A DNA stretch of 64,000 nt from a phage. Position numbers and translations under genes: made by a program. Under the pieces are notes generated by a model that saw only the letters and a program-made list of their open reading frames with translations, did not search any database and was not told the origin of the DNA. Shown here piece after piece: positions 368 to 29,656 of the stretch. The first letter of the stretch is position 1; each line of letters opens with the position of its first letter. The stretch lies in sequence record PZ445443.1. The stretch is one strand, 5' to 3'.

Positions 368-850
368 ATGTCAGATTTTATGTGGAAAGTAGGTTACGCA
401 ACCCCTGAAATGTGTGAGGCTTGCTTTGTTAAAATAGGCCGCGAGGATATCGACAAAGTGATCCTTAAGTTTCGTGATGTGGCTGTGATCGGCAACCGAG
501 TGCTTAAGCACTTAAAGAATCTGAAGCTCACCAAAAAGAAGTTCTTCGGACTTTTCGAAGAGAAGGTTGATGCTTGGACTCATTGCATTCAGGAAGCCAA
601 ATCTCACTACAGTGCCATCGTTACTCCAGAACGGGTAGCAAAGATGGAAGGATTCATCAACAGCACAGAATTTGAGTGCCTAAAGGCTGCCCTTGATAGC
701 TATCCAAAGTGCCTCAAACACCTTGACAAGTATGCAGAAAAGGATGGTGAAATGTATCTCACCCTGGACGCATATTATGAGATGCAAGAAATTTTAAATT
801 TAGATTTGACATTGGTATCCACCGAGTATACAATAGGTATCCGGGTTTAA
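368..850 (+). CDS. hypothetical protein
   Basis: ATG 368 preceded by AAGGAG RBS (354-359); followed by intrinsic terminator. Confidence 0.55.
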   Translation: MSDFMWKVGYATPEMCEACFVKIGREDIDKVILKFRDVAVIGNRVLKHLKNLKLTKKKFFGLFEEKVDAWTHCIQEAKSHYSAIVTPERVAKMEGFINSTEFECLKAALDSYPKCLKHLDKYAEKDGEMYLTLDAYYEMQEILNLDLTLVSTEYTIGIRV

Positions 851-8745: not shown

Positions 8746-9037
8746 AAACATTACCCCAGCAGGGTTCTTAAAAGTATACCGTGAACTGCTATATACTACA
8801 GAGGACAGTGTTCTAGAGTATCCAGAATATCTTTTGCTGTATAAGTATCTACAGGAAGCTGGTGAAAATCTGCCAGTTAGTGCAGAAGGCGGTCCGAACT
8901 GGGTATACAGCGCATGGAGAAAGGTTGACATTCTCCCAGATCCAGGTAAAGATATGGTAGTTTGGCAGCTTATCAACAACATCGGGATTCCAATCTTTGA
9001 TGAAGCTGTTAAAATCTATTTTGAACTTGACGATTAA
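8735..9037 (+). CDS. hypothetical protein
   Basis: ATG 8735 after GGAGAAG RBS. Confidence 0.45.
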   Translation: MKTENITPAGFLKVYRELLYTTEDSVLEYPEYLLLYKYLQEAGENLPVSAEGGPNWVYSAWRKVDILPDPGKDMVVWQLINNIGIPIFDEAVKIYFELDD

Positions 9038-25571: not shown

Positions 25572-25835
25572 ATGAAACGTCTTGACCAGCTCAAACTAGT
25601 TCAATATATGGCTTATCGTGTTCTTGAAGTCCAGAAAGGTAGCAAAAAAGAGGTTTGCGAGAAAGCTTATAAGATCTTTACCCGCAAAAAAGATGACTGG
25701 ATGCTACGCCAGACCAAAAAAGCCGATATACTGGGGTACCTGGAAGAAGAGATCCGCCTTGAAGAACAAGAAGAGATCCGCCGTAGTGAGGCAGATTATC
25801 AGGCAGCTTGGGAAAACTGGATGAGCAACAAATAA
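25572..25835 (+). CDS. hypothetical protein
   Basis: ATG after AAGAGGTAAA RBS; 5' hairpin GGGCCAAAAGGCCC. Confidence 0.55.
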   Translation: MKRLDQLKLVQYMAYRVLEVQKGSKKEVCEKAYKIFTRKKDDWMLRQTKKADILGYLEEEIRLEEQEEIRRSEADYQAAWENWMSNK

Positions 25836-25903
25836 TACAACAAGTTACATGGTCAGGGGGGCAATAAAGCCCCTTGATCGCATGAAAATTATGCTATCTC
25901 TGG

Positions 25904-25932
25904 TTGACAGGGATCGGCAGTTTTGCTATATT
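25904..25932 (+). promoter_or_regulatory. sigma70-like promoter
   Basis: TTGACA, 17 bp spacer, TATATT. Confidence 0.55.
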
Positions 25933-25981
25933 CTTTTTTAAAGGGAAGTTGTAAGAAAATTAACTAAGAGGTAAAAACACC

Positions 25982-26401
25982 ATGAATATTAAATCTGATA
26001 ATCCGGCATATAGCTTTGATAACGCTTTTTGTCACGGTCCGGCGGCGAAAGGTTTTGAAATTGATGGTAAACTAGTTATTGTCAATGTTGACGGGGAAGA
26101 GGTTGCAGTGTATCCGGTGGCAGACGTTAAAAGCCGTTTACAATGCCGCATCGATGTTACCGCATATCAGCTTGATCCGGTCCGCGTAGTCTCCCTGGTC
26201 CTGGAGGAAGAAATCAAAGCAATGCACCACAGCAATAAGTTTATCGGTGACGCGCAAGATAATATGAAGGTATGCCGCTATAAAGTTAATGAAGTGCTTA
26301 AAGAATATGGATTTAAGGATCTGATGATCAAACGTGATGAAAAATTTCGTTATCGTAACGACCTGGCAAATCGAATCTATGAAATATACGAATCATTATA
26401 A
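25982..26401 (+). CDS. hypothetical protein
   Basis: ATG after TAAGAGGTAAA RBS; last gene of forward block. Confidence 0.55.
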   Translation: MNIKSDNPAYSFDNAFCHGPAAKGFEIDGKLVIVNVDGEEVAVYPVADVKSRLQCRIDVTAYQLDPVRVVSLVLEEEIKAMHHSNKFIGDAQDNMKVCRYKVNEVLKEYGFKDLMIKRDEKFRYRNDLANRIYEIYESL

Positions 26402-26420
26402 TTTTTTAACTGAATTATCA

Positions 26421-26444
26421 AGGGGCTTAGGCCCCTTTCTTTTT
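26421..26444 (+). terminator. rho-independent terminator
   Basis: AGGGGC-TTAG-GCCCCT hairpin followed by TTCTTTTT. Confidence 0.7.
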
Positions 26445-27052
26445 GTCTGCTCTTCCCCTACCATAAACGGCCATACATGGCAAGTGGAATAATTGACGAG
26501 CCATCAATCCCACACACTGTACAAATATACATGTAAAATAACTATTGCATAACTTTTCATTGTGTGGTAGCAGGGCCATTTTTACACGTTTTTCCTTCCA
26601 AAATTGCACGTAATGCAGCATTTGCACAAAATTTAACCTGATGCATATCTTCAATAGCTTGTCAACAACTAAAAATCTTTATAAGTCATACACTTACATA
26701 ACTACAAAAGCGTTTTCTACGTGAAAAATCGAGTATAACTATAGCCGCCAGACCTCAGAATTTACGTACGCTCGACATTCTATAGCCTGCTAAGCATTTA
26801 TTCCAACCATAGAATAACGGAATAGTCAATACCTGCATAAAATAATTATTCGTGTAAACTGCATAACATAAATCGGCCCAGGTGTCAACATTTTTCGTAA
26901 ACAGTCCGAAATTATCACTATGAGTTATCATAAACAGGGAAATCTTTAGTCGTCTAATGTTTACTGTACATTACTATACTGACTGGAATCATTAGATGAC
27001 TAAGAGAAAGATAAGAAATAATTAACAATACAATTATTTTATCTGTAACAAT

Positions 27053-27322
27053 AAGGCAACTATGCAAACGAATGGCATGGCGCGACGGAGTCGCGACATA
27101 ATATAAAAGCAGTAACCATCACCCCCGTGATAGTTTGTCTGCAAACTATTAATCAGATCATAGTTGCCTTGTATTTAGTTAATCATGACATAACAAGCAA
27201 GGCAACTATAGATCTGCTAATAGTTGCCCTGCTTTTATATTATGTCATAGAAACACCCGAAGGGGTGACCAAAGGTCACCTGGCATGGCCAGTGAAAGAT
27301 TATTAACTTGCTAATAGTTATC
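27053..27322. repeat. array of 11 bp motif AAGGCAACTAT in both orientations (about 5 copies)
   Basis: AAGGCAACTAT at 27053 and 27199; reverse complement ATAGTTGCCTT at 27160; close variants at 27220 and 27314; flanked by duplicated GCAAACGAATGGCATGGC (27064, 27325). Confidence 0.6.
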
Positions 27323-27354
27323 ATGCAAACGAATGGCATGGCTGATTATCGGTG

Positions 27355-27440
27355 TGTAAACAGTCAATCATGTAAATGGTTAGCATGTGAACAATCAGGA
27401 ATGTAAACAATCCAGTGTGTAAACTAATAGGTGTGTAAAA
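27355..27440. repeat. six phased TGTAAAC-like repeats at about 16 bp spacing
   Basis: TGTAAAC 27355, TGTAAAT 27371, TGTGAAC 27386, TGTAAAC 27402, TGTAAAC 27418, TGTAAAA 27434. Confidence 0.6.
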
Positions 27441-28029
27441 GTGTCATGTTGTGTCAGTTAGGTCACATTATGTCATATTGTGTCAGACAAGTTTTTCTCC
27501 TCTTTGTCAAGTGCTGCATGAAAAATTTACAATCTGGTATGGTAGCATTTTTGCGGCCCTGTTTACATTCAGGGGTGTATGTATAATCCTTGTTGTGTGG
27601 GCGTTTAGACGTCTGGACGGTCAGAAGTCTGCAGGTTAATATCTAATCTATTGGCTGCTAACTATATCCCACACAAATAGTAAGAAATATGATTGTTATA
27701 TGCGTAAACTGTAACTCATGTTATCAATCCCTGTATGTATCGCCAGTGGTGCGCATAATGGGTATTATGTTAAATTGCCCGTAATGATAAAGGTTCTCAC
27801 AATGATAGGTATTCTCATTCACCCCCACAAAATAGATTGCAAATGTTGTGCCACTGTGTGAACGGCCTAGCCTATTAATTTGCCTCACTGCCTCGATATT
27901 TGAGAATTGTTATAAGAATGAGAAGTATTCCCATTTCGTCCGCCTGGCAGCACTCCTGTAGGTCAGGTCAAAATCGTGGTAGAACTGGACCTGTTCAGAT
28001 ATTTCTGGCTGACTCTTCAGGTCTGTGTG

Positions 28030-28555
28030 GGAAAAGCCAACCTCTCCGGCGGGGCAGGGGATAGGTCAATTAAAAAATTTACGTGGTGTATGAAGCGCTC
28101 TTCAGGTAAGGCAGGTATTATGGGATGAAACCCTCTTCAGGCAATGATATTTGTGGGTGTGATATTTGCTGGAAAGCCAGATATGACGGGACTCCCGGCG
28201 GGGCAGGGGTGGTACAGACAGGGAAAATATGAAGGATGTGGTTGGGTAGATTGATCAGACAGGTAGAGTATGGAATATGTTACAAGTATGTTAAATATGG
28301 AGGTTGAATATCTGTAGGATTTGTGTGTAAAATCAAAGACTTAAGTGGTGTTGTGGTATTTTCTATAAATAATTCAAGTTTAATAGGTGATATTTGTCTC
28401 TATCCGCTTTGTGTGGTAAACAGATTCAGATGAGATTGGTTTACAAGTGTATACATAATATACAAATTAAAGATACAAGAAACCCCCCTCCCCCTTCGGC
28501 TACCATTCACCTTTTCCTCTGACTGGTACTTAAACACTTATTCAGACTCTTCAGG
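28030..28555. repeat. dispersed direct repeats CTCTTCAGG (x4) and CCGGCGGGGCAGGGG (x2)
   Basis: CTCTTCAGG at 28030, 28115, 28150, 28547; CCGGCGGGGCAGGGG at 28063 and 28212, each preceded by AAAGCCA. Confidence 0.55.
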
Positions 28556-28905
28556 TTATCACCTATATATCATATGGCAGTGACTGGTGTCCTCCGGCCC
28601 CTCTTTCGTCACCCGTCCGCTTCGCCATGCTAATGCCATAGCCAATGGTTCGGTTGTTCACCCTGTTCACTCAGGTGTATCTCCATACCCCTTCAAACCG
28701 AAGAGAACAGAAAACCCGAATTACTCGGTAAAAGAAAAGAGAAGAACTTAATTTTATCAGGATAGGCAAGAATGTCAAGGCATGACTGCTCACTAAACAA
28801 GCAAACAGTCATGTGTGGGAGGTAAGTGATTGTGGTGGTAGGAAATTTAGTTGAAAGATGTGTTATAGGTGCTTCCAGCACTTTAGCCGGGCAGCTAATT
28901 GTGTG

Positions 28906-29121
28906 TCAGTCCAGCGGTTCATCCTCTACTTCACTGAAATCAATGTTCATGGTCTCCTCCCAACCATCGATCTCAGCACAAGAGTGGAGTTCTTTAGGGT
29001 TTACTCCCAAAGCCTCAGCAACAGAGTCTATATTTAACACCTCTGGCAGGTATGATTCATCAAATTCAAGGTAAATCAGGCCACGAGTGTTGTCAGCCCC
29101 ACCAAATATTTCTATCTTCAT
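28906..29121 (-). CDS. hypothetical small acidic protein (MKIEI-type N-terminus)
   Basis: ATG after AGGAGA RBS; last gene of reverse block. Confidence 0.5.
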   Translation of the reverse strand: MKIEIFGGADNTRGLIYLEFDESYLPEVLNIDSVAEALGVNPKELHSCAEIDGWEETMNIDFSEVEDEPLD

Positions 29122-29242
29122 GAAATCTCCTCTGGAAATGAGAGTGTGAACAGGGTTTTATGCGTTCCAATACGCTGGAATTATACACGTTTGCCTCTTC
29201 AGGCCATGCTTTAGCATGAGGAACCTGTGTGGGCTCGGTGCT

Positions 29243-29656
29243 TCATAGTCTACCACCTCTGAACTCTTCGTGCTCAGGCATAATAGAGAACCAGATATCT
29301 ACGATGTCTCCCCACGTTAGGTCATCAGCCTCAGGATCTACCTGGAGCGAAGATGGAGAATCTTCAGAATCGAAGTTTTCCTCTTTCACTGGCTCAGCCA
29401 AGGGACATATAGCCACTCCTTTGGATGTCTCTTCAGATGCATGTGTGTTTATCATGTTCCACCCGTGAGTATTCCGGCAACAGCCACTATGGACGTAATG
29501 ATCATCAGAATCACCACCAAAACCTCTGACAATGTTTTCATTGTGTATCCCATATTCTCCAAACGATGTGTGGATACTATCACTGGAGCGACAATGTGTC
29601 AACAGAAACGCCGCGAGGGTTTGGTTAAAATCCGAGCGTATGGTGATTTGGGTCAA
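29243..29656 (-). CDS. hypothetical protein (start uncertain)
   Basis: Co-oriented ORF; acidic C-terminal half; alternative ATG at 29455 would give 70 aa. Confidence 0.35.
   Translation of the reverse strand: MTQITIRSDFNQTLAAFLLTHCRSSDSIHTSFGEYGIHNENIVRGFGGDSDDHYVHSGCCRNTHGWNMINTHASEETSKGVAICPLAEPVKEENFDSEDSPSSLQVDPEADDLTWGDIVDIWFSIMPEHEEFRGGRL

Follow-up and report, generated by a model that had tools for sequence, protein, structure and literature searches.

The three palindromes at positions 27254 to 27293 of the window (the whole 64-kb stretch of DNA that was analyzed) probably belong to one copy of a small non-autonomous mobile element of 48 nt, of which they make up the body. The unit has fixed ends, occurs at unrelated sites in filled and empty alleles, always lies in one orientation behind a 5' tetranucleotide, and is conserved in its stems only, a combination that argues for such an element. 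Judged by its similarities, the window is that of an rV5-like phage (Vequintavirus): the region from 26400 to 28500 matches 121 phage records at 91% to 96% identity, all of them rV5-like Escherichia coli phages of this genus, some deposited under other host names. Members of the genus are virulent and are used in phage therapy and typing. Mobile elements of such a small size have been described chiefly in bacterial chromosomes (REPs), and selfish palindromes inserted in frame chiefly in Rickettsia. If the unit is mobile, lytic phage genomes would host miniature transposable DNA of their own, the unit would serve as a sequence marker of DNA traffic between rV5-like phages and uncharacterized 13.5-kb capsid-encoding circles, and its three stems plus the RWAG target would provide a compact substrate for finding the responsible enzyme.

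Palindromes in the ORF-free region

The palindromes are located within an ORF-free stretch of ~2.3 to 2.5 kb between convergent gene blocks. The plus-strand genes stop at position 26401 and are followed by a strong terminator at 26420 to 26445, and the minus-strand genes start rightward of ~28900. On the rV5 genome map, this stretch is the gray "non-coding" box between genes 163 and 164, and neither a promoter nor a terminator is listed at the palindromes (PMC3606486); no description of the function of the region was found in the searchable literature. A plus-strand terminator-like hairpin with a T-run ends ~10 nt upstream of the 48-nt unit and is an annotated terminator in phages Murica and Alma. 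Among nine full-length relatives, the ORF-free region is 90% to 100% conserved except for an island at ~27247 to 27480.

This hypervariable island (62% to 82% column identity), of which the palindromes form the left edge, also contains ATTGTTAACTTG-like and TGTAAAC-like repeats in variable numbers. Immediately to its left lies an inverted repeat of ~150 nt (27095 to 27246) that is essentially invariant in more than 100 phages; its outer arms pair without mismatch for 18 nt, and the 9-mers GGCAACTAT/ATAGTTGCC are found inside it. The segment from 27040 to 27350 folds with z-scores of -7.6 and -8.8. The inverted repeat is bracketed by 20-nt direct repeats (ATGCAAACGAATGGCATGGC) at 27062 to 27081 and 27323 to 27342, of which phage FV3 has a single copy, lacking the whole 261 nt between them, the surroundings of the unit included. 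To the right of the island, ~1.4 kb of ORF-free DNA (27482 to 28880) is 92% to 100% conserved among the relatives and contains the repeated motifs CTCTTCAGG and CCGGCGGGGCAGGGG; a near-consensus sigma-70 promoter on the minus strand (28778 to 28751) is directed into it, parts of it are similar by eye in the distant phage A73, and it could possibly be an unannotated non-coding RNA or cis-acting region. The 139-aa gene to the left of the ORF-free region is ~91% identical in Phapecoctavirus, which belongs to another subfamily, and 88% identical in A73. In both, this gene again precedes ORF-free DNA with abutting or overlapping short palindromes of unrelated sequence (Table 1). The cumulative GC skew turns at ~28 to 30 kb but follows gene orientation and was uninformative on a replication origin, as were the start points of the deposited records, which differ within the region, on the physical end of the genome.

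An earlier note on this DNA had described three abutting palindromes of a 6-3-6 form. The palindromes are real, as confirmed in the sequence (CACCCGAAGGGGTGACCAAAGGTCACCTGGCATGGCCAGT), and overlap slightly, but their forms differ from that description and P2 is longer than first stated (Table 1). P2 has GGTG in common with P1 and one C in common with P3, so the three full stems cannot form simultaneously and are partly mutually exclusive. The minimum-energy fold of the plus strand contains P1 and P3, and that of the minus strand contains P3 and P2 plus part of P1; the folding z-scores of the block are modest (-2.2 and -1.7).

With no condition set on composition, 34 of 100 dinucleotide-shuffled versions of the window contained three perfect stem-loops somewhere within a span of 45 nt. 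Three separate G+C-rich stem-loops (at least four G/C per stem) did not occur in any of 300 shuffles, the maximum being two, in 22 of them, but this filter was picked post hoc, with the site already seen, and we therefore relied on comparative evidence rather than on the shuffle count. On the comparison of sequences, a chance origin of the palindromes is excluded, the decisive evidence being that the unit recurs elsewhere with its stems kept. A mechanically called 59-aa ORF (27127 to 27306) runs across the block, and its frame is broken by 2-nt loop indels among relatives; this ORF is spurious, which is a caution for annotators.

TABLE 1 Positions and sequences of the palindromes, the copies of the 48-nt unit, their junctions, and related features
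Feature	Position	Strand	Remarks
Stem-loop P1, CACCC-gaag-GGGTG	27254-27267	+	5-4-5
Stem-loop P2, GGTGACC-aaa-GGTCACC (GGTGACCaaaGGTCACC)	27264-27280	+	7-3-7
Stem-loop P3, CTGGC-atg-GCCAG	27280-27292	+	5-3-5
Intact copy, 48 nt (AAACACCCGAAGGGGTGACCAAAGGTCACCTGGCATGGCCAGTGAAAG)	27251-27298	+	Present/absent unit; covariance model, 81 bits
ATAG, tetranucleotide 5' of insertion point (target side)	27247-27250	+	
3' tail TGAAAG	27293-27298	+	From alignment; kept by both truncated L013 remnants
Second, decayed copy (AGACATCCAAAGGAGTGGCTATATGTCCCTTGGCTGAGCCAGTGAAAG)	29383-29430	-	From similarity to plasmid copy; covariance model, 69 bits
Unoccupied target GGCCTGAAG^AGGCAAACG	29188-29205	-	From alignment; filled in contig L013/L032
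Copy and remnants in L013 (IMGVR_UViG_3300010279_000001)	1157-1210, ~3250, ~960		
Junction, phage non-coding site	27251-27298		TGTCATAG^
Junction, plasmid non-coding site			TTGATAG^
Junction, L013 intergenic site			GCCTGAAG^AGGC
Junction, strain 190 Rep-like gene			GCCTGAAG^AGGC
Junction, plasmid 78-aa CDS			TCCGAAG^AGGG
Junction, phage 70-aa ORF			TCTGAAG^AGGA
P1 loops			GAAG, AAAG (AAAG in pE275a_13)
P2 loops			CAAAG, CTA, CTG, TGAAA, AATAG, AGTAG
P3 loops			ATG, ATA, AGA, TAA
Circle records	L038 (NZ_CP035869.1, whole record), L039, L040, L041		
Second cassette	L009 (rV5) 312-344; L022 (SYGMH1) 623-657		Equivalent to window ~27189 and ~27318
139-aa gene and following ORF-free DNA	Window 25982-26401; L035 3901-5177; L036 3900-6100		
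Unrelated palindromes after 139-aa gene	L035 4545-4612; L036 5390-5425		

The 48-nt unit and its copies

Comparison of 22 relatives, anchored on the invariant flanks, revealed that the block is present or absent as a unit. The site is filled in 13 sampled phages, and the empty allele reads TGTCATAG^ATTATT in phage nom and TGTCATAT^ATTATT in A141 and Pr121LW, all three of which lack exactly the 48 nt from 27251 to 27298. In Alma, naswa, and slur16, a different 12-nt filler replaces the block, in V18 the block is cut after P2, and in the metagenomic phage L013 the 3' remnant CATAGCCAGTGAAAG alone is left at the site; the deletions in V18 and L013 are hairpin associated and begin inside the element. 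According to BLAST, ~52 of the 121 Vequintavirus records carry the block, and it is absent from about 57%. Its absence from many relatives, together with the loss of the surrounding 261 nt in FV3, indicates that the phage does not need it. The copy, located just downstream of the conserved long inverted repeat at the edge of the hypervariable stretch, is probably a passenger dispensable to the phage, and the element accounts for part of the indel variation in the ORF-free region.

The consensus of the element is A-R-M-C-R-CCC-raag-GGGTGAC-loop-GTCACCTGGC-nnn-GCCAG-Y-GAAAG, and the GAAAG at its 3' end is conserved in most copies, being GAAAT in three alleles of the site at 27251. In an alignment of 16 copies, 97.5% of the stem cells are standard pairs on the sense strand. 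Two compensatory changes were identified: (i) the fourth pair of P3 is G-C in the phages and C-G in p3RM10740 (CTGCC-aga-GGCAG), and (ii) the outer pair of P2, mostly G-C, is A-U in decayed copies. One-sided changes in the intact copies produce G-U on the sense strand, as in the P1 variants CGCCC and CACCT, where pairing is kept in this way, and the P2 stem GGTGAC/GTCACC is invariant in the intact copies. Counted by eye, about six wobble-preserving events favor the sense strand versus one for the antisense strand, a split that is no more than suggestive. The loops vary (Table 1), and the variable columns of the intact copies number 5 of 27 in the stems versus 8 of 12 in the loops (Fisher p = 0.008). 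With only two compensatory pairs, and with copies that are related to one another, significance is overstated by the shuffle controls. The arms of P2 are 5 nt apart in some phages and 3 nt apart in others, with a perfect palindrome in both cases; such a 2-bp change in spacing is tolerated by a hairpin but not by a dimeric DNA-binding site.

The proposal that the site forms a multi-hairpin element holds as far as the hairpins are concerned, since the stems are conserved across independent copies, where all changes other than those at the two compensatory pairs are compatible with wobble pairing, and the three loops all differ in sequence and length. Nor is the block a stand-alone RNA gene: the Rfam 15 covariance models gave no match on either strand of 25800 to 29300 at E values of up to 5, and the block is not fixed at one locus.

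A covariance model built from the 16 copies detected exactly two copies in the window and nothing further above 11 bits. The second, decayed copy follows TCTGAAG and is in frame within a 70-aa minus-strand ORF (29243 to 29455), where it reads ..EETSKGVAICPLAEPVKE..; the L013 ortholog of this ORF lacks the first 36 nt of the element. L013 is an IMG/VR contig ~85% identical to the window and is the same assembly as JGI L032. Two of its minus-strand genes are separated by a full copy, cleanly inserted (46 nt) at GGCCTGAAG^AGGCAAACG, a site that is empty in 120 of 120 GenBank relatives. The evidence for relocation within phages comes from this one metagenomic contig, which two databases hold as the same assembly. 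The two older copies in L013 are reduced to the 3' remnants CATAGCCAGTGAAAG and AGCCGGTGAAAG, with the intact copy at the new site, a pattern that would fit imprecise excision plus reinsertion.

BLAST searches with three variants of the element returned Vequintavirus only, plus one Streptococcus phage record taken as spurious. In genome and metagenome collections, pattern scans matched nothing but Vequintavirus contigs and, by chance, G+C-rich coding DNA, and those of IMG/VR returned L013 only. A second G+C-rich hairpin cassette (TAAACTCAGGCATAGCCTTCGTCTCGAGGATGT) was observed at one site in 10 phages, flanked by TA, and a copy with ~75% similarity is present at a different, also TA-flanked, site in SYGMH1. 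One of its stems shows a compensatory change, and GGCATAGCC is common to the cassette and P3; on these grounds, it may represent a second mini-element family.

Outside the phages, no chromosomal copy turned up among 5,426 complete E. coli genomes, and a host-derived repeat was rejected on this basis. The matches were in circular "plasmids" of 13.3 to 13.7 kb and in a 39.6-kb trimer of such a circle (p3RM10740). These circles encode major capsid, tape measure, baseplate, Neck1-like, and RepO/DnaD-like proteins, and no recognizable terminase was found among their genes; the best matches of their tape measure and capsid proteins are weak (22% to 27% identity) and are to large myoviruses, including Vequintavirus. 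The circles also contain ~3 kb of ORF-free DNA and occur in 7 of the 5,426 complete genomes, and there are many related contigs. The circles have the look of a satellite or miniature phage-like element not described before, and neither the 48-nt unit nor the 13.5-kb circles are described in the searchable literature.

Five of the seven circles carry a copy, at differing positions, one of them having two copies, and the other two have no match. In pE275a_13 and p7_14_47A-2, the copy is in non-coding DNA at GATAG^CACCC, upstream of, and in the same sense as, an HTH gene. Its identity in pE275a_13 is 88%, and this site is filled in two circles and empty (48 nt shorter) in five. An in-frame copy is present in p3RM10740 and p7_14_47A-2 within a 78-aa CDS just upstream of the tape measure gene, and the pE275a_13 ortholog is 61 aa long and lacks the element; the 78-aa form was found on hundreds of E. 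coli contigs of ~13.5 to 14 kb. In the strain 190 plasmid, a Rep/MarR-like protein contains a clean 16-residue insert (EDTPEGVTVGHLAKPV) relative to two orthologs, with the junction CAGCCTGAAG^AGGCTAAAG, that is, CAGCCTGAAG^AGGC. When concatenated peptide variants of this insert were compared with 5.8 billion proteins, only the 77- to 78-aa plasmid protein was recovered. Apart from one 24-nt match, the similarity between plasmids and phage is limited to the element. This match (23/24; GATATTTGAGAATTGTTATAAGAA; E value, ~0.001) is between window positions 27895 to 27918 and L038 positions 8896 to 8919, joins the ORF-free regions of the phage and a 13.5-kb circle, and is possibly another common short element.

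Thus, one unit with identical ends is found at six or more unrelated loci, and at four of these (the phage site at 27251, the L013 site, the plasmid non-coding site, and the Rep-like CDS) clean filled and empty alleles with exact junctions were observed. GAAG (four sites) or ATAG (two sites) lies directly 5' of the element at all six sites of Table 1, in one consistent phasing, such that an R-W-A-G tetranucleotide precedes the element and AAAG ends it. The two independent insertions in L013 and strain 190 are in an identical 12-nt target, GCCTGAAG^AGGC, composed of a small stem, a GAAG loop, and a stem (GCCT-GAAG-AGGC; hairpin GCCTGAAGAGGC), like P1. The orientation relative to the target is the same at all sites, and the element is in the sense of the neighboring genes wherever these are known. 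The three CDS copies have one frame in common, giving the 16-residue insert TPEGVT.GHL..PVK; two antisense frames are also open, so the choice of frame is not forced by stop codons alone. The ends of the element (AAAC../..GAAAG) are not inverted repeats, and only the 2-nt AG is common to the left flank and the 3' end of the element, at every junction. A classical, DDE-derived MITE was rejected, there being neither terminal inverted repeats nor a target site duplication of fixed length. The window contains six unoccupied YCYGAAGAGG motifs, which, together with 0 to 2 copies per genome, points to a presumably low activity of the element. With so few copies, it is no prolific repeat.

Possible mechanism and alternative explanations

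A trans-acting enzyme could recognize the stems in a single strand, either of DNA in the course of replication or possibly of RNA, and would insert the unit strand specifically after the R-W-A-G tetranucleotide. The logic would be that of single-strand HUH-type transposition, as in IS200/IS605, IS91, and REP/RAYT, and is suggested by the lack of terminal inverted repeats, the hairpin-marked body, and the strand-specific insertion 3' of a tetranucleotide without clear duplication. The hairpin-like target GCCT-GAAG-AGGC, present at two independent sites, would be a mimic of P1. No transposase or other mobilizing enzyme emerged for the phage window or the plasmids; the proteins covered were 10 of the plasmids, scanned against PHROGs, and no HUH transposase (TnpA or RAYT) was among them. 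The 2-nt AG repeat found at all junctions would be explained equally well by microhomology-mediated templated insertion. We put forward only tentatively, as the less likely case, that the unit is a currently active hairpin-guided element of 48 nt that moves between virulent rV5-like phages and the 13.5-kb circles, targets GAAG-loop hairpins, and enters genes in frame. If so, it would imply a trans-acting single-stranded DNA transposase or nickase, encoded by the phage, the satellite, or the host, and it would be a physical trace of coinfection, possibly of a helper-satellite relation.

The most serious alternative is that the unit serves a function in cis, for example, as a hairpin cluster for packaging, for the priming of replication, or for regulation, that selection rather than selfish spread accounts for its acquisition and maintenance, and that the circles are satellites exploiting rV5-like helpers. 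The stems are under purifying selection, and the circles would suit such a role: they encode capsid, tape measure, baseplate, and Rep-like proteins without a recognizable terminase, their tape measure and capsid proteins are weakly closest to large myoviruses including Vequintavirus, most have about one copy, and the element-bearing form of the 78-aa CDS is widespread on contigs. We nevertheless regard this as unlikely, because over half of the Vequintavirus genomes lack an intact copy and keep only the decayed one in the ORF, FV3 dispenses with the whole surrounding segment, and among the circles two have no match at all and one has two copies. Nor would a required signal be expected in three different reading frames and one intergenic spacer.

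A main role of the hairpins in RNA, in terminating or stabilizing the 3' ends of transcripts that converge on the ORF-free region, seems very unlikely. Convergent gene blocks flank the site, and the bidirectional terminators anticipated there in rV5 were not found (PMC3606486); the plus-strand terminator-like hairpin annotated in Murica and Alma is close by, and P1, read on the minus strand (CACCCCTTCGGGTG and then TTTCTATGAC), was picked up as terminator-like in a scan. However, the plus strand has no U-tract after the block, and the minus-strand tail is weak (just TTTCT) and is lost in variants, those with CGCCC/TAGGAAC degrading both the minus-strand stem, by an A-C mismatch, and the tail. 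An intrinsic terminator was rejected, as no conserved G+C hairpin plus U-tract exists on either strand. The modest folding z-scores, the absence of the block from most relatives, and the location of other copies inside coding sequences, where termination would be harmful, also speak against a role in RNA. The least credible explanation, to which we assign hardly any probability, is one proposed in the earlier note, that the palindromes are duplex binding sites of dimeric proteins, i.e., an operator or recombinase core site. The palindromes are short and perfect, and the ORF-free region around them also contains repeat arrays, which would suit such sites, but the half-site spacing of P2 shifts by 2 bp (CAAAG versus CTA/CTG) while the palindrome stays perfect, substitutions in P1 and P3 affect one arm only, and the block is dispensable, absent from over half of the nearest relatives, and also found within genes. 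Neither fixed spacing with symmetric half-sites nor conserved presence with a cognate regulator was observed, and the rV5 genome paper does not mention an integrase or recombinase (PMC3606486).

Relation to known mobile palindromes

Considered as a small non-autonomous mobile element, the 48-nt unit is similar to the REPs and BIMEs of enterobacteria, which are very short (tens of nucleotides), G+C-rich, imperfect palindromes that are non-coding and non-autonomous, have a conserved tetranucleotide at the foot of the hairpin, and are often located just downstream of genes. REPs are mobilized by RAYT (TnpA-REP, an HUH Y1 enzyme) and are recognized as folded single strands. However, the element is unlike the chromosomal repeats of E. 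coli, with no chromosomal match in the genomes searched, and it has three stem-loops instead of one and 0 to 2 copies per genome versus the hundreds of REPs. It also resides in a virulent phage and in phage-like plasmids, in part in frame within genes, and has no linked RAYT.

With the IS200/IS605 and IS91 families of single-strand transposition and their miniature derivatives (PATEs), the unit shares ends that are marked by hairpins rather than by terminal inverted repeats and orientation-specific insertion 3' of a conserved tetranucleotide (GAAG/ATAG) with no clear target duplication. The known derivatives are several times longer than its 48 nt. No tnpA or tnpB gene was found near it, and the AG repeat at its junctions is compatible with other mechanisms.

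The Rickettsia palindromic elements (RPEs) are also palindromic selfish DNA found both in non-coding DNA and in frame in protein genes, where they are translated as an extra peptide, and frame-preserving translated insertions of the element were found in the Rep-like protein, the 78-aa CDS, and the 70-aa phage ORF. RPEs are ~100 to 150 nt long and occur in tens of copies in obligate intracellular bacteria, whereas the element is a 48-nt unit of phages and plasmids; the two are set apart by size and hosts, and no sequence relation between them is known. The promoter-early stem-loops (PeSLs) of T4-type phages include a promoter and mark gene-shuffling junctions, whereas the element has no promoter and is also present in coding sequence. 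Like the PeSLs and the mobile GC clusters of yeast mitochondrial DNA, however, it is a short G+C-rich hairpin module in A+T-rich intergenic DNA of a compact genome and is associated with indels and the boundaries of variable segments. In kind, the element resembles REPs in size and hairpins, derivatives of IS200/IS605 or IS91 in the logic of insertion, and RPEs in its in-frame entry into genes, but by sequence, size, copy number, and host it appears to be a member of none of these three.
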